This document shows positions 19,403 through 63,826 of a stretch of DNA of 64,000 bases, piece after piece. Made by a program: the position numbers and the translations under genes. The stretch comes from a bacterium (GTDB lineage Bacteria; Patescibacteriota; Dojkabacteria; JAKAPS01; JAJZLI01), in contig JAJYWX010000003.1 of the NCBI GenBank assembly GCA_021791275.1, positions 29,641-93,640 of the forward strand. Direction: 5' to 3'. The first letter of the stretch is position 1. The number at the start of each line of letters is the position of its first letter. The notes below the pieces were generated by a model. The model saw nothing but the letters and a program-made list of their open reading frames with translations. It was not told where the DNA came from and made no database searches.

Positions 19403-20481
19403 AATATATAGGAATTGATTTCAGAGAAGTAGGAGAACATGAAACTGGGATAGGAAACTACACAAAAAGCATTGTCTCTGAAATGTTGAAAATAGATAAA
19501 AAAAACGTATATTATATAATATGTAATAGTGGGTCAATATACGAAAAATATAAAAATATATATAAAAAGAATAAGAATATTAAAATAGTTGCAATAAAAT
19601 CTAAGACAAAGAGTGTACTCTCTGAATTTACCTTAAATAGAGAATTAAAAAAATTAAAAATAGATATATTTTGGACTCATATATGGGGAAGTATATATTT
19701 TTTTTCTATACCATATACTATTACTTTACATGATGTAATAGGAGTTAAAAACCCTCAATTTGTAAGTTTAAAATACAAAATATATAACAGATTCCACTTA
19801 AAATGGACAATCAACAGAGCATATAAAGTTTTTACTCCAACTTATGCGGTAAAAGATGATGTCATAGAATATTTAAAAATAAAAAATAGCAAAAAAATAA
19901 GAGTTATAGGAGAAGGTGTTAGTGTCCCTAAAAGTTATTATGAAGGCGAAGATATTTTAAAAAAATACAAGATAGATAAGGAGTATTTCATATATGTAGG
20001 TAATAGTAGACCTCATAAAAATGTACAAACCCTTGTTTCTGATTTCTTACTTTACAAAAAGAAATATAAGCAAGATACAATGCTTGTTTTAATAGGGGTA
20101 AAAGAGAATGATATAGGTATTAAAAATAAAAATGTAAAAATTCTTCATAATATAAATAATGTTGAAAAATTTGAAATTTTAAAGAAAGCTATTTGTTTCG
20201 TAACACTAACTTATGATGAGGGATTTTCCTTACCTATACTTGAAGCCACATATTCTGGAATACCCGTAATATGTACTGATATACCTGTTCTAAGAGAAGT
20301 TATAGGAGATGAAGGTGCAATTTTTGTAGATAATTTATATGAAGATGATGTTTGTGAAGCATTAAATAAAATATATCTAGATAAAAATTTAAGGGAAAAT
20401 ATTGTTAAAGAAGCAAAAGAAAGACTTGAAGTTTATACTTGGAAAAAAAGTGCAAAAAAAGTATTAAAATATATTAAATGA
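19399..20481 (+). CDS. Glycosyltransferase (GT4-like, GT-B fold)
   Basis: C-terminal EGFSLPILEATYSGIPVICTD. Start overlaps the galE stop (ATGA). Confidence 0.75.
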   Translation: MKYIGIDFREVGEHETGIGNYTKSIVSEMLKIDKKNVYYIICNSGSIYEKYKNIYKKNKNIKIVAIKSKTKSVLSEFTLNRELKKLKIDIFWTHIWGSIYFFSIPYTITLHDVIGVKNPQFVSLKYKIYNRFHLKWTINRAYKVFTPTYAVKDDVIEYLKIKNSKKIRVIGEGVSVPKSYYEGEDILKKYKIDKEYFIYVGNSRPHKNVQTLVSDFLLYKKKYKQDTMLVLIGVKENDIGIKNKNVKILHNINNVEKFEILKKAICFVTLTYDEGFSLPILEATYSGIPVICTDIPVLREVIGDEGAIFVDNLYEDDVCEALNKIYLDKNLRENIVKEAKERLEVYTWKKSAKKVLKYIK

Positions 20482-21674
20482 AAGATAAAAAGAATGCCTC
20501 ATTAAATTTAATAATTTTTAATATTATTAAGTTTATATATGTAACATCAGTTGCATATATAATTTTTGTAAATAATTCAAAATATTTTGAATATGTTGCT
20601 CCTGTAATTATTATATTTGAAATATTAAATATATTTTCAAATTATATAAATAAGAAATGGGAAATTGATATTAGCTCTATTGGTTCTATAATAGCAATCA
20701 CAGATATATCATTTTTATTTTTCATATTAATTATAACCCACAACAATGTTTTATTTTTAGCATTAGCATTAATATCTTATATTCTAAACTTTTTAATATA
20801 TAATAAATTAGTAATATCTTTAGAGATTTTTATTACAGCACTTTTATTATTTTTCCTAGGAGTAATATATCTAAATATTGTATATATTCTCCTTGCCTTA
20901 ATATTTATAATAATAGGGGTATCCATATATTTATATAGAACCAATTTTAAAAAAGATGAAAATACTGATATAAAACCAGATATTATTACTAATGAGAAGG
21001 ATGAAACCGTAGATATAAAGGATGAATTTACTATTATTGTTTCACATAATTTAAGAACACCGATTGCTACATTAAAAGGATATTTACAACTTATAGAGTA
21101 TACAAATGACGAGGAATTAAAGCAAAACTATTTAAACCTTTTAAAAAATAACGTTAATAAATTATATCTTTTAACAGAAGAAGTACTTGGTATAATAAAT
21201 AATACTAAAACCTCTGATTCAAAAACAAACGTAAATTTAGTAATCTCAGCTCTTATAGAAAGATTCGATGAAGATCTGAAATCAAAAAGGATAGAAATTA
21301 ATGTAAAAAGTGATTCTCAAAATACAGAAGTAAATGTAGGAGAATATAGATTAAAAATAATATTGGGCAATATTATTGAAAATGCCATAAAATTTTCTCA
21401 CTTAAATTCTCAGATCGATATTAATATATATCATATCCAAGATAAAGGATTATCAATTAAAATAAGAGATTACGGTACAGGGATAGAAAAGGAAGCTTTA
21501 AAAAATATTTTTCAGAAATATCACAAAACTGACAACGTACTAAATTCTAATTTTGAAGGTTTAGGGTTAGGCCTATATATAGTAAAAAGCTTAATAAATG
21601 ATGAAAAGGGGCAAATTGTTATAAATTCAGAGAAAGGAAAAGGTACAGAAGTTGAAATAGTATTCCCATTGTAA
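20478..21674 (+). CDS. Sensor histidine kinase with polytopic (about 5 TM) membrane sensor and no large periplasmic loop
   Basis: H-box SHNLRTPIATLKGY, an HATPase_c domain with G-boxes (RDYGTGI, GLGLGLYIV) and 5 N-terminal TM helices. Confidence 0.8.
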   Translation: MKDKKNASLNLIIFNIIKFIYVTSVAYIIFVNNSKYFEYVAPVIIIFEILNIFSNYINKKWEIDISSIGSIIAITDISFLFFILIITHNNVLFLALALISYILNFLIYNKLVISLEIFITALLLFFLGVIYLNIVYILLALIFIIIGVSIYLYRTNFKKDENTDIKPDIITNEKDETVDIKDEFTIIVSHNLRTPIATLKGYLQLIEYTNDEELKQNYLNLLKNNVNKLYLLTEEVLGIINNTKTSDSKTNVNLVISALIERFDEDLKSKRIEINVKSDSQNTEVNVGEYRLKIILGNIIENAIKFSHLNSQIDINIYHIQDKGLSIKIRDYGTGIEKEALKNIFQKYHKTDNVLNSNFEGLGLGLYIVKSLINDEKGQIVINSEKGKGTEVEIVFPL

Positions 21675-21686
21675 TAATATAGAGAT

Positions 21687-22931
21687 ATGCTCAAGAAAAT
21701 AAGAAAATTTACTGAAGACGCTAGTATTTCAGAGCCAATAGCATATGTTATTTTTATAAGGATATTTATAAAGGTTTTTATTTTCTTATCCGCACTCTAC
21801 TTCAAGCTTAATTATGCATCATTGTCAATAATTATATTTATATTTCTAGTAACAGAAATATATAGAAATATTGGTACAATTTTATCGGCCACCAAAAAAT
21901 TTCCTGATGAACTTATCGGAGGAATAATATCAGCACTGGATGGTGCAATGATAGTACTTTTACTTTACTACACAAACCTTTTAGGAAGTTATCTATACAT
22001 TTTTATAATACTTTCAATAGCTTTCGATACAATCGAATATGGTATTACTGCAGGTATGGCTGAAGGATTAACTGCTTCAATTTCATATGTATTTTTAGAA
22101 GGGTTTATAAGTACTAATTATACAGAAATTTTAATTAAAGCTTTAATAATAATCATAATTGGAATTATTACAGGATGGCTGAGTGAAAAAATGAAAAATA
22201 GTGAAAAATTGCTACAGAATACTTTAATGAAAAGTAAAAAAGCACAGAGGTTAAATAAGATAAAAGATGAGTTTATTGGAATTAGTTCACATAAAGTAAA
22301 AACTCCAATATCAGTTATTAAAGGTTATATTGAGTTACTCCTCAATGGAAGAGCAGGAGACTTAAATGAAGCTCAAAAAGATTACTTACTGAAAATAGAT
22401 GCCAACACATCTACATTAAATATGCTAATTGACGATCTTCTAAGTATACTTACATTGCAAAATAATAAAATTACAATAATCCCTGCTGAAAATTATATTA
22501 TAAAACTCTTAAATGAGATAAAAAGCAATTTTGAAGCTGAGGAAAAGATAAAGAATATAAAATATTTAACTGATATTGATATAAAAGATAATAAGTTGGC
22601 TGTTTTTGATTATGATAAAATAAAGATAGCAATATCAAATATACTCTCTTATTCTTTTGAAAAATCTAGAGAATCTATAACCTTAAGATCTTATGTAAAT
22701 GAGAATAGTTGGTTTATAGAGGTAAAGGATGATAGTCTAGGTGTAAGTAAAAATGAAGTAAAAAGAATACTTTCGGATAAAAATGAAATTTTCCAAACAA
22801 TAAAAGAGTTAGGAAATAAAGGATTAAATTTATATATATCAAATCTCATAATTCAAGCCCATAAGGGAAGGTTTGAAATAATATCAATAGAGGGTATAGG
22901 TACAACCTTTAAAATTAAACTACCACTATGA
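21687..22931 (+). CDS. Second sensor histidine kinase, paralogous architecture
   Basis: H-box SSHKVKTPISVIKGY and a C-terminal HATPase-like region, after 5-6 TM helices. Confidence 0.75.
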   Translation: MLKKIRKFTEDASISEPIAYVIFIRIFIKVFIFLSALYFKLNYASLSIIIFIFLVTEIYRNIGTILSATKKFPDELIGGIISALDGAMIVLLLYYTNLLGSYLYIFIILSIAFDTIEYGITAGMAEGLTASISYVFLEGFISTNYTEILIKALIIIIIGIITGWLSEKMKNSEKLLQNTLMKSKKAQRLNKIKDEFIGISSHKVKTPISVIKGYIELLLNGRAGDLNEAQKDYLLKIDANTSTLNMLIDDLLSILTLQNNKITIIPAENYIIKLLNEIKSNFEAEEKIKNIKYLTDIDIKDNKLAVFDYDKIKIAISNILSYSFEKSRESITLRSYVNENSWFIEVKDDSLGVSKNEVKRILSDKNEIFQTIKELGNKGLNLYISNLIIQAHKGRFEIISIEGIGTTFKIKLPL

Positions 22932-23287
22932 GTAAAATATTATTAGTTGAAGATGACAATGACTTAGTAAATATATATAAAGAAGAACTTAGTTTTTCTA
23001 ATATAGATTTTGATATCGCTACAAATGGAGAGGATGCAATTAAAAAAAATGAATCTTTTGATTATGATTTGATAATGCTTGACATAATGCTTCCTGATAT
23101 TAGTGGAATAGATGTACTTAAGAAAATCAAGGAAAAAGATAAAGATAAAAAAGTTATTGTGATATCAAATTTAGAAGTCCCTGCAATAATAAACCAAGCT
23201 TTTGCGTTAGGTGTTAATGCCTATCTTATAAAAGCAGAGCTTCTGCCATCTCAGATAATAGAAGAGGTAAAAAGACTTATAACATGA
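22928..23287 (+). CDS. Single-domain response regulator (CheY-like receiver only)
   Basis: LLVEDDNDL...DLIMLDIMLPDISGIDVLKKIK...KVIVISN. 119 aa with no output domain. Confidence 0.8.
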   Translation: MSKILLVEDDNDLVNIYKEELSFSNIDFDIATNGEDAIKKNESFDYDLIMLDIMLPDISGIDVLKKIKEKDKDKKVIVISNLEVPAIINQAFALGVNAYLIKAELLPSQIIEEVKRLIT

Positions 23288-24960
23288 ATGAATTAATCCT
23301 TTATACTACAGCTATACTAACTTTAGCATTAATCGGTGGTTATATAGCTGTAAAATTTAAGCAATACGCAATAGTAGGCTACATATTGATGGGAGTTATA
23401 ATAGGGAGTTTTATTTCCAAAATTCCAGGATCAGAAAATGACATACAAACTCTTTCTTATATAGGTGTTGCATTACTAATTTTTTATACAGGTACGGAAT
23501 TTTCTCTAGGCAAGGTATTGGAATACAAAGGTGTTATTATTAAAGGAATAATAATACAATTTATTATAAATCTTTTAATAATAACATTCCTATTATTTAT
23601 ACTAAAAATAAATATCATTCAAAGTATAATTATTTCTGCAGCACTTTCCTTTAGTTCAACTATTATTGTAAGCAAAATACTAAAAGATCTTGATAGGAAT
23701 TATTCCAATGAAAATCAAATAACTATATCTTGGTTAATGTTACAAGACCTTATATCTATCCCTGTGATAATTTTTATAGAAGATTTTGCACAAAGAGTAC
23801 ACGGTAGTATGCTTATTTTTTCAATATTATCACCAATACTAAAGAGTATTTTACTTCTTATCATAATTTATTATCTAGGATCATTAATCATTCCATACAT
23901 ACTAAAGGAGATAGCAAAAACAGAAATAAGAGAACTTTTAATAATATCGATAATCTGTATTTTATTTATAATGATAACTCTATCTTATTACATAGGTATA
24001 TCCCCTGTAATAGGTGCATTCATTGCAGGATTAATCATTTCCAAAGGGATGCTCAATCATGAAATTTCATCAGAAATTCGGCCATTTAAGGATATATTTT
24101 CTGTATTCTTTTTTATACTTATTGGGACACTCACTCCAATATCTTTTATATTTTCACATATAATAATTATTATTCTTTTAATAATATTTTTTGTACTAAT
24201 AAAGATTATAGTAGAATACTTACTTTTGAATAATTTTCATTTCCACTCTCTTGAATCATTTACTATTGCTCTCAATATGTTCCAAGCTGGAGAATTTTCA
24301 TTTATTGTGGGATTAACTGCATACTCATATGGATTATTATCATTTAATAATTATCATCTGCTATTATCAGTCACAATAATAACTATGATATTTTCCCCTA
24401 TTGTTATAAAAAATAATATTAATATATATAATTTTATAAAAAGATTCTTAGGAAAAAAGGATAATAGAAGCCATACCTCTTCCCAAGTAGAATCAGAGAA
24501 AGATTCTCATAGTGATATAGTAATTGCAGGATATGGACGAGTTGGAAGACAAATAACAAATATTTTAGTCAAAAATGGTATATCGGTAACTGTCATTGAT
24601 TTTAATAAAGATTTAATAAATTCAGAGAAGAATAAGAACATAAGATTTGTTTATGGAAATGCCGAATCTTTGGATATATTAAAATTTGCAAGAGTGCCTG
24701 ATGCGAAAGTTTTAATTATAACTACGCCAGAAATAGAAGTTAATTATGAAATAACAACTCTTTCAAAAAAAATTAATCCAAGGATAAAGATAATTGCAAG
24801 ATCTCACTTGCCAAAACATAAAGAGATTCTATCTAAATCAGGGGTAGAACATGTTATAGAACCTGAAAAAGAGGCTGCGAAAAAAATGACTGAGATCCTA
24901 TTGCAATCTATTGGCAAAAAAGAAAAAGAAATACTTTTTATATTAGATAATATTAAGTAA
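23284..24960 (+). CDS. Monovalent cation:proton antiporter (CPA2, Kef-type) with C-terminal RCK/TrkA-N domain
   Basis: About 12 TM helices, then Rossmann IAGYGRVGRQITNIL and a TrkA-N-like domain. Confidence 0.8.
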   Translation: MNELILYTTAILTLALIGGYIAVKFKQYAIVGYILMGVIIGSFISKIPGSENDIQTLSYIGVALLIFYTGTEFSLGKVLEYKGVIIKGIIIQFIINLLIITFLLFILKINIIQSIIISAALSFSSTIIVSKILKDLDRNYSNENQITISWLMLQDLISIPVIIFIEDFAQRVHGSMLIFSILSPILKSILLLIIIYYLGSLIIPYILKEIAKTEIRELLIISIICILFIMITLSYYIGISPVIGAFIAGLIISKGMLNHEISSEIRPFKDIFSVFFFILIGTLTPISFIFSHIIIIILLIIFFVLIKIIVEYLLLNNFHFHSLESFTIALNMFQAGEFSFIVGLTAYSYGLLSFNNYHLLLSVTIITMIFSPIVIKNNINIYNFIKRFLGKKDNRSHTSSQVESEKDSHSDIVIAGYGRVGRQITNILVKNGISVTVIDFNKDLINSEKNKNIRFVYGNAESLDILKFARVPDAKVLIITTPEIEVNYEITTLSKKINPRIKIIARSHLPKHKEILSKSGVEHVIEPEKEAAKKMTEILLQSIGKKEKEILFILDNIK

Positions 24961-61147: not shown

Positions 61148-61519
61148 TCAATATTCATTAAGTATCTTTTGTATGTTCTTAATTTCTTTATTATCTAATT
61201 TTATTTTTTTTAAAGAGACTTTATCTAATACAATATCATTTGCCATTGATAGTAATTCCTTTTTATTCTTTTTATTCGAATTTTCACAAAGATAATTATA
61301 TATTTTATCCCTTTTTAAGGTATATAAAGATACTAGTTTAAAGTAGTACATAATTTTGGTAAAAAACGATGTAATTAAAATTGATATTAGGAGGTAAAGA
61401 ATAAAAAGATATAAATTAAAATAAACTATAGATTCAAAGGTTTTATATATAAAATATATACCGAAAACAAAAAGTACAATAGATACTATAAAATTAAATT
61501 TAAGAGATTTTTTTCTCAT
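61148..61519 (-). CDS. Hypothetical small membrane protein (2 TM)
   Basis: 123-aa ORF downstream of the subunit-IV-like gene. Confidence 0.3.
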   Translation of the reverse strand: MRKKSLKFNFIVSIVLFVFGIYFIYKTFESIVYFNLYLFILYLLISILITSFFTKIMYYFKLVSLYTLKRDKIYNYLCENSNKKNKKELLSMANDIVLDKVSLKKIKLDNKEIKNIQKILNEY

Positions 61520-62444
61520 TGTAATATCTTCTCCAAATTATTTTATATATTGGAATATAATAAGGAATTTTATTTAAAACTGGTATTATTGGGATGAAAA
61601 ACAATATTGCAATAAATACGCTAAACGTTAGAAATGCCATTAAGTCTCCCGAAGGGGAAGTAGAATAAGGAGGTATTTGATATAAGGATGTATATAAAAA
61701 TAACCACCAAGGACCAGGATAGTTTCCCTCCTCTTTTAAAATCCCCCACTGATCGCCAAGCATAGAATAATTTTTAGCCATATTTGCAAGTGGAGCACCC
61801 TGTAAAAATAACAATTTATTTTGGAAATTATATGAATACACCCCGTTATTCCCTTTTAAATTATTATCTAAAAGGTTTTGAAATACTCCAGTCTGAGCCA
61901 GGATTAACAAATCGTTTTCCATACCCTGAATGGGACCATATTCTCCATTCTTAACAATAACTTTCCCCTTATAGACTTTAGCTGAATTCAAAGCTTTATA
62001 ATAATTTTCCTCATACTTATTTAAAAGACTCTTATCATAGTGGGATAAATAAAAATATTGATTCATAAGAGTCTTTACTTTTTGAGATAATCGCGAATAA
62101 GTTATTAAAGGATCTATAAAAAAGACCTCTTTGGGGTGTACAGAAACAGTTACCCCCTCAATTCCCTCTGGCGATATGAATCCTACAGATTGTGCTTGTC
62201 CATTTTTATTATAGGGAGGACCATAATCCTCCAGAGAGGAGATTCCCAATATATTTCTAGATTCCACTTTTTCAAAACCTACCGGACTACTCTTAGAATA
62301 AGACATAATTGACAGGGGTTTCATTTGTGGAGATTTAAAAAGTAAAGCTAAAATTAGAATAAAAGCTAAAACTGCAAAAAAAGCATATAAAAATTCTTTT
62401 ATAAGATCTGATTCTTTTTGTTTATATTTATCTTCTTCATTCAT
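61500..62444 (-). CDS. Membrane protein with a large extracytoplasmic insert and C-terminal cytochrome b C-terminal/subunit-IV-like segment (PEWY-like PWWLF)
   Basis: One N-terminal TM, a soluble region of about 190 aa, then YPGPWWLFLYTSLYQIPP plus a TM (LMAFLTFSVFIAILFFIPIIPVL), which resembles the PEWYF.PvfqILR plus helix F of PetD/QcrC. Immediately follows the cytochrome b6-like gene. Start taken at the internal Met (62444); the longer ORF would begin at 62501. Confidence 0.4.
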   Translation of the reverse strand: MNEEDKYKQKESDLIKEFLYAFFAVLAFILILALLFKSPQMKPLSIMSYSKSSPVGFEKVESRNILGISSLEDYGPPYNKNGQAQSVGFISPEGIEGVTVSVHPKEVFFIDPLITYSRLSQKVKTLMNQYFYLSHYDKSLLNKYEENYYKALNSAKVYKGKVIVKNGEYGPIQGMENDLLILAQTGVFQNLLDNNLKGNNGVYSYNFQNKLLFLQGAPLANMAKNYSMLGDQWGILKEEGNYPGPWWLFLYTSLYQIPPYSTSPSGDLMAFLTFSVFIAILFFIPIIPVLNKIPYYIPIYKIIWRRYYNEKKIS

Positions 62445-62445
62445 A

Positions 62446-63030
62446 TCATTCAATTGGGGGTACAACCCCTTTCTTCCTAACAAAAAATAAATGTATGCCA
62501 AGAAGCGCTACTAATATTATTGGAAGTATCACTACATGCAACCCATAAATTTGACTATTATTTAATATATTAATAAATCCAGTTAATCCAATCGCATTCA
62601 TTGCATCTTTAGCTTGCACTTGGTTCCATTGTGCAAAAAATCCCCCACCAATAAGATAGCCCAAGAAAGCTTCAAACATAGATATTCCAAAAAGCATAAC
62701 CCCCAACATCCATGTAATAATCCTTCCTTCTCTCCAACCTGCCATAAAAAAAACTGAAATCATATGTACTATCATGAAAAAAAAGAATACCTGAGCTCCC
62801 CAGAAATGTATCGATCTGAAGAAAAGTCCTAACGAAGAGTATTGGTACCAAATGGGTCCTTCTAAAACCATTATTATTCCTGATGATATAACGATAACAA
62901 GACTTGCCATCGTAAGAACCCCAAACATATATACAAAAGAGGATACATACACTGGTAATGTATCAGGAAGCATCATATCTGGGTCTAAATCTTTTTTTAT
63001 CTCTTTTTTTACTACCCTAGTTATATTCAT
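62446..63030 (-). CDS. Cytochrome b6-type dihaem membrane protein (PetB/QcrB N-terminal-domain homolog)
   Basis: Aligns by eye along its length with cytochrome b6. FRSIHFWGAQVFFFFMIVH has His-x13-His, compared with RSVHRWSASMMVLMMILH. TWMLGVMLF...FLGYLI matches TWVTGVVLA...VTGYSL. IYGLHVVILPIILVALLGIHLFFVRKKG has His-x14-His, compared with [28 protein letters not shown]. All four haem-ligand His are at b6 spacing. Confidence 0.7.
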   Translation of the reverse strand: MNITRVVKKEIKKDLDPDMMLPDTLPVYVSSFVYMFGVLTMASLVIVISSGIIMVLEGPIWYQYSSLGLFFRSIHFWGAQVFFFFMIVHMISVFFMAGWREGRIITWMLGVMLFGISMFEAFLGYLIGGGFFAQWNQVQAKDAMNAIGLTGFINILNNSQIYGLHVVILPIILVALLGIHLFFVRKKGVVPPIE

Positions 63031-63210
63031 ATATTATTATTTCTTCTTATTTTTTCTTTTCTTACTTGAAAAATTTGGATATGGTAAAATTATAGCTACA
63101 ATAAACGCCACTATTATTAAAATGTATATTGCTATATCTATATATATTGAATTTCCACCACCCATATTAAACATTGTAGTACAAAAATAAATTAATTCAA
63201 CAAATAAATT

Positions 63211-63250: not shown

Positions 63251-63826
63251 ATGATACAGGATAATGTATTACTATTTAGAGTAATCAACGGCTGGGCTAT
63301 AAACCCATTTTTTAATGCATTCTTTTCCTTTTGTGCTCAATACTTAATATTCATATTTTTAATTCTTGTAATAATAATTTGGTTTTACAAAAAACCATTA
63401 TCAAAAGATGTTGATAACAAAAGGATATTCATGTTATCAGTAATATCTTCGGTTATATCTTGGTTGATATTAGATAAAATGCTGGGGTTTATTTATTACG
63501 AAAAAAGACCATTTGTAGCGTTAAAAAATGTACACTTACTATTCCACTATATACCTAATAATTCTTTCCCTTCAGATCACTCCGCAGTAACAATGGCACT
63601 AGCTTCAATGATATTTGTATATAATAAAAAATTAGGATGGTTTTTCATCGTATTATCTGTATTAATAGGTTTTTCCCGAGTCTTTTCTGGAGTACATTTT
63701 CCGTTAGATATAGTTGTTGGGTTTACCTCTGGAATTCTTGCAACAATAATAGTTTATATACTAAAAGATAAATTAGAACCTCTCTTAAATTTAGGAATTA
63801 GTATTGGCAAAAAGCTTCATATATAA
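63251..63826 (+). CDS. PAP2-superfamily phosphatase (BcrC/undecaprenyl-diphosphatase-like)
   Basis: PAP2 motifs KxxxxxxRP-like (YEKRPF), PSDHS and SRVFSGVHFPLD, with 5-6 TM helices. Confidence 0.75.
   Translation: MIQDNVLLFRVINGWAINPFFNAFFSFCAQYLIFIFLILVIIIWFYKKPLSKDVDNKRIFMLSVISSVISWLILDKMLGFIYYEKRPFVALKNVHLLFHYIPNNSFPSDHSAVTMALASMIFVYNKKLGWFFIVLSVLIGFSRVFSGVHFPLDIVVGFTSGILATIIVYILKDKLEPLLNLGISIGKKLHI

Follow-up and report, generated by a model that had tools for sequence, protein, structure and literature searches.

A conserved gene module for a cytochrome b6-type protein and a putative two-helix subunit IV homologue, mostly without nearby Rieske genes, in Patescibacteria and other phyla

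In a 64,000-nucleotide stretch of contig JAJYWX010000003.1, from a Patescibacterium of the Dojkabacteria (GCA_021791275.1; we refer to this stretch as the window), four adjacent genes encode a 45-amino-acid membrane peptide, a 194-amino-acid cytochrome b6-type protein (hereafter b6), a 314-amino-acid protein that we call the partner, and a 123-amino-acid protein with two helices. We propose that these four proteins form a membrane complex and that this complex is a Rieske-independent, quinone-linked, two-haem module that would carry electrons across the membrane; we consider this to be somewhat probable. The b6 protein has the identity, the haem ligands, and the C-terminus of its superfamily, the genes form a tight operon that is conserved in hundreds of species, b6 and the partner are naturally fused in some bacteria, and Rieske and cytochrome c genes are almost entirely absent from the surroundings. 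The function that we suggest for the complex comes from comparisons of sequences and from structural models.

The original prediction, which was made from the sequence of the window alone, was of a b6/subunit IV pair that could be a minimal quinol:acceptor module or a transmembrane electron conduit. This idea is still the best reading of the data, although it is not proven. The pair itself was confirmed, but the module has four genes, not two. Nor is the pair confined to this genome: it belongs to a family that is widespread across more than 10 phyla.

The b6-type protein and its partner

The 194-amino-acid protein is a b6-type (short) cytochrome b of the cytochrome b/b6 superfamily. It scores above the gathering thresholds of both Pfam hidden Markov models (HMMs) for the N-terminal domain of cytochrome b: PF13631 (56.4 bits, E = 4.6e-15, cut-off 27) and PF00033 (47.2 bits, E = 3e-12, cut-off 27.2). 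Residues 25-192 align with a solved cytochrome b6 (PDB 7r0w_I, E = 2.2e-10), and the protein has four hydrophobic segments. The haem ligands have the spacing of b6-type proteins, with H75 and H89 forming His-x13-His and H165 and H180 forming His-x14-His. Three of these ligands (H75, H165, and H180) do not vary across 54 homologues, and the conservation of H89 is at least 90%. Also invariant in these homologues is R185, the counterpart of Arg207 of cytochrome b6, which is part of the b6-type C-terminus that follows helix D (H-x4-R185-K-x-G-x2-P; the C-terminal sequence is HLFFVRKKGVVPPIE). Other conserved features are the haem-packing glycines G37 and G51 and an R-x2-T-W loop on the inner face. 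The HMM matches, the PDB match, the ligand spacing, and the C-terminus bear out the claim that this is a two-haem protein of the b6 type. The best structural match was not a cytochrome b561/Dcytb fold.

The protein contains no cysteine. The position equivalent to the CxGG motif reads F-G-V-L, and only its first glycine (G37) is conserved. The CxGG motif in helix A supplies the cysteine for a covalent third haem (PMC5600118), so the 194-amino-acid protein lacks the site for this haem. Nor is it an equivalent of PetB, QcrB, or ExtP, as its scores are far below the curated cut-offs: 64.8 bits for PRK03735 (cytochrome b6/QcrB; cut-off 325), 46.1 bits for the actinobacterial QcrB model (cut-off 500), and 68.1 bits for the ExtP model NF040969 (cut-off 290), which is the best-scoring of the curated NCBIfam models.

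The partner has two hydrophobic stretches (residues 12-42 and 263-297) that contain two membrane helices, and a loop of about 200 amino acids on the outside lies between them. Its short N-terminus is cytoplasmic and includes D-L-I-K16-E17, in which K16 is invariant and D13 and E17 are at least 90% conserved. The outside domain is mostly helical; it has no known fold, no conserved cysteine or histidine, and no conserved metal- or flavin-binding motif. After this domain comes an invariant block (Y-P-G-P-W-W-x3-Y-x3-Y-Q-I-P-P-Y-S-T-S-x2-G-D), then the second membrane helix, and then a basic, amphipathic tail (Y-K-I-I-W-R-R-Y-Y; Y-K-x-I-W-R-R-Y-Y across the family).

We think that the partner is best described as a truncated, two-helix homologue of subunit IV, or of the C-terminal domain of cytochrome b, that carries a new inserted domain. 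This assignment is based on gene order, a natural fusion, the superposition of a model of that fusion on cytochrome b, and a profile alignment. In 69 of the 70 loci that we scored, the b6 gene is directly upstream of the partner gene. In Acidithrix ferrooxidans, the two are joined in frame as a single polypeptide of 535 amino acids. The best 120 database matches to this protein are all fusions as well, with lengths of 505-670 amino acids (from Gaiellaceae, Acidimicrobiales, Ferrimicrobium, and Mycobacteriales). The fusion sets the topology, with the N-terminus of the partner inside the cell and its large loop outside, as for helix E and the ef loop of cytochrome b.

The AlphaFold2 model of the fusion has a pLDDT of 81.7 and a pTM of 0.80, and all 50 of the Foldseek matches listed for it are cytochromes b. 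The model superposes on full-length cytochrome b over 262-279 residues, as compared to 178 residues for b6 alone. After the four-helix bundle, the partner provides two helices instead of the three of PetD or the four of long cytochrome b, and the fused form likewise ends after the second. A helix begins in the model at A464/W465, which is the position equivalent to YPGPWW, although the exact register at the quinol-oxidation (Qo) site is approximate.

The profile of the fused family aligned with bovine cytochrome b in hhalign with a probability of 94% (E = 1.5e-7, columns 43-253). This alignment crosses the linker into helix E, where it places Y-D-x2-K-E on Y-Y-T-I-K227-D228. K227 and D228 of bovine cytochrome b belong to the quinone-reduction (Qi) site. 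The partner alone gave the identical K-E register in an alignment that was not significant. Beyond the PEWY position there is a weak match between LFLYTSLYQIP and LFAYAILRSIP, and helix F matches weakly too; both are collinear with the match in helix E. We treat these hhalign alignments to bovine cytochrome b and PetD as leads in keeping with the structure and not as independent proof. The fusion and the three collinear profile matches, which are weak to moderate, uphold the idea of a subunit-IV-like partner with a large insert on the positive side, but the sequence HMMs do not, as discussed below.

YPGPWW is probably the counterpart of the PEWY motif of the Qo site, at the start of the ef helix, as judged from the sequences and the model. 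Across the family, the motif is Y-P-G-[P/Q/A]-[W/A/V]-W-L, and its last tryptophan (W247) is invariant. The position of the PEWY glutamate is occupied by W, A, or V, so that the acidic residue is absent. Natural variants of the Qo motif that lack the acid have been described (APWY, GPWY, GPWF, and PPWF), and the tryptophan is 96% conserved (Kao and Hunte, PMC4122944). The family's [P/Q/A]-[W/A/V]-W-L, with its invariant tryptophan, fits within the range of these documented variants.

Gene content around the module and across the family

A six-frame scan of the window found no Rieske motif (CxH...CxxH). There are two CxxCH motifs in the window, which are the zinc motif of ribosomal protein L31 (54587-54907) and a 43-amino-acid antisense open reading frame (ORF). 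To either side of the window we read another 10 kb, or about 84 kb in total, from contig DAIBVW010000002.1 of the metagenome-assembled genome (MAG) GCA_027425295.1, which matches the window. The precomputed Pfam hits for these 84 kb include no Rieske, cytochrome c, or cytochrome c maturation gene. We also fetched 87 loci with 1389 ORFs from more than 10 phyla (the 80 closest relatives from a genome scan, along with other relatives and overlapping copies; numbers of the form L059 refer to these loci). A Rieske-motif ORF was present in one of the 87 loci and a multihaem cytochrome c in one other. The original claim that the window lacks both kinds of gene is thus correct, and it extends to nearly all of the other loci. 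The Rieske-motif ORF is in a Dormibacterota MAG, two genes 5' of the module; it encodes 221 amino acids with a classical CTHQGC...CPCH motif (L059:5880-6545). The cytochrome is a 740-amino-acid protein with 13 CxxCH motifs near the module of an NC10 MAG (L076:10314-12536).

Relatives of the partner were found at 249 loci in a scan with one genome per species, and the 80 closest of these were kept for the analysis of neighbourhoods. An exhaustive profile search returned 926 clusters (at 50% identity) with E <= 1e-3 and 512 with E <= 1e-10. Members occur in Patescibacteria (Colwellbacteria included), Alicyclobacillus, Sulfoacidibacillus, Ferroacidibacillus, Acidithrix, Dormibacterota, Chloroflexota, Actinomycetota, Spirochaetota, Mesoaciditoga/Athalassotoga, NC10, Sulfuriferula, and Oricola. 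The copies from Patescibacteria make up one clade in a neighbour-joining tree, with 44-60% identity, and the four-gene module is kept in 11 Patescibacteria species that have diverged to this extent.

Several Bacillota have two or more diverged b6-partner modules per genome: Alicyclobacillus mengziensis (L018 and L022), the MAG HSP1.bin40 (L019 and L024), and Alicyclobacillaceae I2511 (L004 and L037). L019 contains two copies of the module on one contig in opposite orientations. Many of the closest relatives (L008-L087) are from acidophiles or from acidic or iron-rich habitats, such as Alicyclobacillus, Sulfoacidibacillus, Ferroacidibacillus, Acidithrix ferrooxidans, Sulfuriferula, and Mesoaciditoga. 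The pattern may be ecological, or it may come only from sampling, as the 80 best matches were kept. The isolate names of the MAGs among the relatives often share one naming scheme.

The genes next to the module differ between lineages. In a Mesoaciditoga locus, a genuine MenG/UbiE (demethylmenaquinone) methyltransferase is encoded directly 3' of the partner (L042:8849-9577; TIGR01934, 198.9 bits, cut-off 158). It belongs to a cluster of four members, of which three are directly 3' of the partner (in L042, L052, and L073, from Mesoaciditoga, Athalassotoga, and related bacteria). A 184-amino-acid class-I methyltransferase that is just 5' of the module in the Patescibacterium GCA_027425355.1 (L092:8678-9232) was considered as another UbiE, and we rejected it since only the generic SAM-binding core matched. 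In about 11-13 of the fetched loci, including loci from Dormibacterota, Actinomycetota, Chloroflexota, and Spirochaetia, a NarL-type response regulator and a HisKA_3 kinase are within a few genes of the module. In Bacillota of the Alicyclobacillaceae type, the module is followed by a radical SAM/SPASM protein that passes the cut-off of its own model, TIGR04053 (L045:9454-11340, with equivalents in L068, L036, and L063), and by a VIT1-family iron transporter. The TIGR04053 protein is related to the haem b synthase AhbD and to NirJ, and these two neighbours hint at a link to haem or iron in this lineage. In Patescibacteria, a gene similar to PAP2/undecaprenyl-diphosphate phosphatases (63251-63826 (+) in the window; also in L015, L016, and L093) adjoins the module in two arrangements: it is divergent and 5' of the module in the window and in L008-L010, and it is convergent and 3', along with rpsF-ssb-rpsR, in loci of the Colwellbacteria type. 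This adjacency could be retained synteny or could be a functional link.

The two flanking genes of the module seem to encode small subunits. The 45-amino-acid product (MFNMGGGNSIYIDIAIYILIIVAFIVAIILPYPNFSSKKRKNKKK) is a single-helix peptide with an LPYP motif and a basic tail, and other assemblies of this organism also annotate its gene. Using tblastn, we found it directly 5' of b6 in all 10 of the other Patescibacteria loci (E = 8e-12 to 8e-5), with an LP(Y/F)P motif followed by a basic tail. A related ORF ('FGIFNLAIPNI...RLP') is 5' of b6 in at least 30 loci from other phyla, and in some relatives the peptide is fused to the N-terminus of b6. The peptide is probably a small subunit, and this fusion and the basic tail place its N-terminus outside and its tail inside. 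Its position resembles that of the Rieske gene in qcrABC, and it was considered as a remnant of a Rieske membrane anchor; this was rejected, as its orientation is opposite to that of Rieske proteins. Every Patescibacteria locus that is long enough has a homologue of the 123-amino-acid protein at the equivalent position. In many Bacillota loci this position is taken by an unrelated small protein with one or two helices, and in most loci from other phyla we found no ORF there. The 123-amino-acid protein is probably a lineage-specific fourth subunit, to judge from this distribution.

The genes and the main features of the module are listed in Table 1. All of the module's ORFs are intact and they are translationally coupled. 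In our list of ORFs, the partner extended from 61500 to 62501 with a TTG start, and an internal ATG at 62444 gives a protein of 314 amino acids. This ATG is almost certainly the true start, because the junction between b6 and the partner is TGA-T-ATG, with the ATG just one base past the stop codon of b6, and because public assemblies call a protein of 314 amino acids. 3' of the module are rpsF, ssb, and rpsR, and the PAP2 phosphatase gene is 5' on the opposite strand. We found the identical b6 protein on 23 contigs that we read (from NCBI, JGI, ENA, and Logan data), which represent several independent samples. A scan of the window for promoters and terminators was at the level of shuffled sequence (26 promoter-like sites versus 21.5 +/- 4.9 expected), and an Rfam scan of the window matched one tRNA and nothing else.

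Table 1. Genes and features of the module, in coordinates of the 64-kb window
Feature	Position	Strand	Description
Gene for 45-amino-acid membrane peptide	63037..63174	(-)	Directly 5' of the b6 gene
Gene for 194-amino-acid cytochrome b6-type protein	62446..63030	(-)	Four membrane helices and two bis-His haem sites
Gene for 314-amino-acid partner	61500..62444	(-)	Helix E, outside domain, putative Qo-type motif and ef helix, helix F, basic tail
Gene for 123-amino-acid two-helix protein	61148..61519	(-)	From the ORF list; 20-nucleotide overlap with the stop codon end of the partner gene
Ligands in helix B	62764..62808	(-)	H75 codon 62806-62808 (outer haem), H89 codon 62764-62766 (inner haem)
Ligands in helix D	62491..62538	(-)	H165 codon 62536-62538, H180 codon 62491-62493
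Partner residues 13-17	62394..62408	(-)	D-L-I-K-E, cytoplasmic end of the first helix
Outside (positive-side) domain of partner	61722..62333	(-)	About 200 amino acids
YPGPWW motif of partner	61704..61721	(-)	Residues 242-247

As the original prediction had it, the genome is AT-rich and streamlined: the GC content of the window is 24-33%, and the genes in the 84 kb are mainly for housekeeping. Apart from a pair of genes from the VKOR and DUF929 families, the precomputed Pfam hits are for housekeeping functions only (cell division, peptidoglycan synthesis, tRNA synthetases, Sec, RecA, DnaB, release factors, and transporters). A TP_methylase gene in the window was considered as a tetrapyrrole enzyme and rejected, as it is the rRNA methyltransferase RsmI. 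On the forward strand at 20478-24960 of the window, there are two adjacent genes for HisKA/HATPase kinases, a stand-alone receiver, and then a Na+/H+ exchanger with TrkA_N, which is an unusually dense block of signalling and ion homeostasis for a small genome.

The VKOR-family gene (L091:19388-19804; Pfam E = 6.8e-22) is on the same contig, 9.4 kb to the left of the window, and its loop cysteines (C39 and C47) and its CLWC active site are intact. It adjoins a gene for a membrane-anchored DUF929 protein with a thioredoxin-type FCPYC motif (L091:18601-19422, or about 9.4-10.2 kb to the left). From their motifs, the two look like a quinone-dependent pair for forming disulfide bonds. VKOR pairs are common in the Candidate Phyla Radiation (PMC6744442), and VKOR is described as re-oxidising DsbA- or MdbA-type proteins by reducing quinone (PMC11208910). 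Because VKOR is encoded on this contig, the organism very probably has a membrane quinone.

Proposed mechanism and alternative explanations

In the complex that we propose, the two haems would act as a transmembrane wire. R185 of b6 together with K16 and E17 of the partner (which would correspond to Lys227 and Asp228 of bc1) may retain a Qi/Qn-type pocket for quinone on the inner face. The outer face would keep a Qo-type pocket without its proton-accepting acid, and the new outside domain would probably cap this pocket and cover the surface on which the head of the Rieske protein docks. As there would be no Rieske cluster to accept the first electron, neither bifurcation nor a bifurcating Q-cycle would be possible. 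Instead, electrons would move singly, with the quinone/quinol of the membrane at one end and an outer-face partner at the other, much as they do in redox loops through two-haem cytochrome b subunits. The most economical role in this Patescibacterium would be the turnover of a scavenged quinone pool, for instance by re-oxidising the quinol that VKOR makes. The sole link between VKOR and the module is that both are present in one genome; VKOR was adjacent to the module in none of the fetched loci. It is also conceivable, and we think unlikely, that the complex is the only quinol-handling enzyme of a symbiont that is auxotrophic for haem and quinone, and that it re-oxidises the host-derived quinol that VKOR makes as disulfide bonds are formed. 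The electrons would then travel via two scavenged haems to an external acceptor on the outside domain, which would stand in for the Rieske head.

Several results weigh against the idea of a quinone-linked two-haem complex. The precomputed Pfam hits for the 84 kb include no respiratory genes and no genes for the synthesis of haem or quinone, and the general report for Patescibacteria is that the synthesis of haem and quinone and most electron-transport genes are missing (PMC8407418), so both cofactors would need to be imported. With no conserved cysteine or histidine, the outside domain has no obvious site for a redox cofactor. The partner has no match in Pfam or NCBIfam, including Cytochrom_B_C and PetD; PDB profile searches with the whole partner and with its C-terminal 86 columns did not find a chain of cytochrome b or subunit IV; and pairwise hhalign comparisons of the partner with bovine cytochrome b and PetD gave non-significant probabilities of 0.5-12%. 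The neighbours of the module vary by lineage and do not indicate a single pathway. The lack of a Rieske gene in this genome has been established for about 84 kb of contig. Finally, we did not find in the literature any experiment on the family, any solved structure, or any characterised member.

This limit of about 84 kb on our gene negatives leaves some room for an ordinary Rieske/cytochrome b complex of the bc or b6f type, in which the Rieske protein and cytochrome c are encoded elsewhere and a normal Q-cycle operates. The b6 protein bears all of the hallmarks of cytochrome b, the Dormibacterota locus does have a Rieske-motif ORF two genes 5', and in other systems Rieske genes are not always beside cytochrome b genes (PMC5600118). 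We nevertheless consider an ordinary complex to be improbable. Across the 87 loci, a Rieske-motif ORF and a multihaem cytochrome c are nearby just once each, and the 84 kb lack Rieske, cytochrome c, and maturation genes. The proteins themselves also speak against it: the acidic residue of the Qo site is replaced by W, A, or V; the insert of about 200 amino acids is in the loop that, according to the model, forms part of the docking surface for Rieske; the partner has no helix G; and the curated models for b6, QcrB, and ExtP give scores that fall far short of their cut-offs. A decaying relic, or a haem-free scaffold that has no redox role in a haem-auxotrophic symbiont, might be expected from the reported scarcity of electron-transport genes in Patescibacteria (PMC8407418) and from the lack of haem and quinone synthesis genes in the 84 kb. 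We find this hardly credible, as none of the ORFs is broken and they are translationally coupled, none of the four haem histidines or of the family's invariant residues has been lost, the four-gene module persists in 11 Patescibacteria species at 44-60% identity, and identical copies occur in several independent samples.

Another alternative keeps the two haems but not the quinone. As in cytochrome b561, ferric reductases, MsrQ, or CybB, electrons would enter at the inner haem from a reductant in the cytoplasm, and the outer haem, with the outside domain for docking, would exchange them with external Fe(III), superoxide, or a secreted redox protein. Such a conduit would need no quinone in a lineage that cannot make one, many of the carriers are acidophiles of iron-rich habitats, and a VIT1-family iron transporter is 3' of the module in Alicyclobacillaceae. 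The enrichment of acidophiles might, however, be due to sampling of the 80 closest relatives, and the outside domain has no conserved motif for binding a metal or a flavin. A role without quinone also does not explain why the inner-face residues of the quinone-site type are retained (R185 of b6 and K16 of the partner are invariant, and E17 is at least 90% conserved), why a MenG/UbiE gene adjoins the module in loci of the Mesoaciditoga/Athalassotoga type, or why this genome encodes a quinone-dependent VKOR. Overall we think that a quinone-independent conduit is unlikely. We regard as quite improbable the idea that the module is a redox or haem sensor, or an accessory to signalling, that reports the redox state of the membrane or the quinone pool to a two-component system. 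The NarL-type regulator and HisKA_3 kinase near the module in about 11-13 loci would fit with this, but there are no such neighbours in most loci, including all of those from Patescibacteria, and the module's proteins have no output domain for signalling. Both haems, the Qi-type residues, and the Qo-type motif are kept, which fits better with catalysis.

Comparison with known systems and significance

The module resembles PetB/PetD of the b6f complex and QcrB/QcrC of the menaquinol:cytochrome c reductases of Bacillota in its split gene order, with the b6-type gene first, in the His-x13-His and His-x14-His spacings, and in the H-x4-R-K-x-G-x2-P terminus; its best sequence match in the PDB is a cytochrome b6. 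Unlike those systems, it has no CxGG site or covalent third haem, the partner has two helices and an outside domain of about 200 amino acids, P-W-W-L replaces P-E/D-W-Y, and there is no Rieske protein, cytochrome f, or cytochrome c encoded nearby. Long cytochromes b (Corynebacterium QcrB, 7q21_B, and mouse cytochrome b, 7o37_C) are single polypeptides, as are the actinobacterial members of our family, and both have the Lys-Asp/Glu pair where helix E starts. Identity to these proteins is 13-21%, and the present family differs in having no helices G and H, a large insert in the ef loop, the b6-type spacing in helix D, and no Rieske or cytochrome c1 partner.

ExtP, from the extHIJKLMNOPQS cluster of Geobacter, is likewise a short b6-like cytochrome b outside of a classical respiratory context. 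Its neighbours are the Rieske protein ExtO, the small membrane protein ExtQ, and several multihaem cytochromes c (PMC5877670). In the phylogeny of Dibrova et al. 2017, cytochromes b from the Patescibacteria group and Saccharibacteria are placed in subfamily G, and short cytochromes b without CxGG are placed in subfamily K (PMC5600118). The functions of these subfamilies are obscure, and one of them might include our family. The paper gives no account of the partner or its outside domain, of the small subunits, or of a systematic absence of Rieske genes (PMC5600118), and we found no description of the partner, of the small subunits, or of Rieske independence elsewhere in the literature. What appears to be new is a widespread family in which a Rieske-less b6 is paired with a putative two-helix homologue of subunit IV that carries a new domain.

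In NarI, FdnI, cytochrome b561, Dcytb, MsrQ, and CybB, two stacked bis-His haems carry single electrons across the membrane and link a quinone site or a soluble donor on one face with a partner on the other. For our module, these proteins are a working analogy only. The cytochrome b of the bc1 and b6f complexes is among the best-studied of membrane proteins, and the prevailing view ties its function to the Rieske protein through electron bifurcation at the Qo site. If our reading is correct, then this family would be a natural experiment in how a cytochrome b can work when there is no bifurcation, and it would bear on evolutionary scenarios in which the cytochrome b module preceded its partnership with Rieske proteins. 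The hypothesis is testable in cultured carriers, such as Alicyclobacillus, Acidithrix ferrooxidans, Sulfuriferula multivorans, and Oricola nitratireducens.

For the Patescibacteria that carry the module, a complex of the haem/quinone type would imply that both cofactors are imported, and it would provide a candidate route for the turnover of quinone. If the complex were the sole enzyme that handles quinol in such a symbiont, which as noted we think unlikely, then it would be a previously unrecognised minimal module of the respiratory type, and it would explain how Patescibacteria that have VKOR keep their quinone oxidised.

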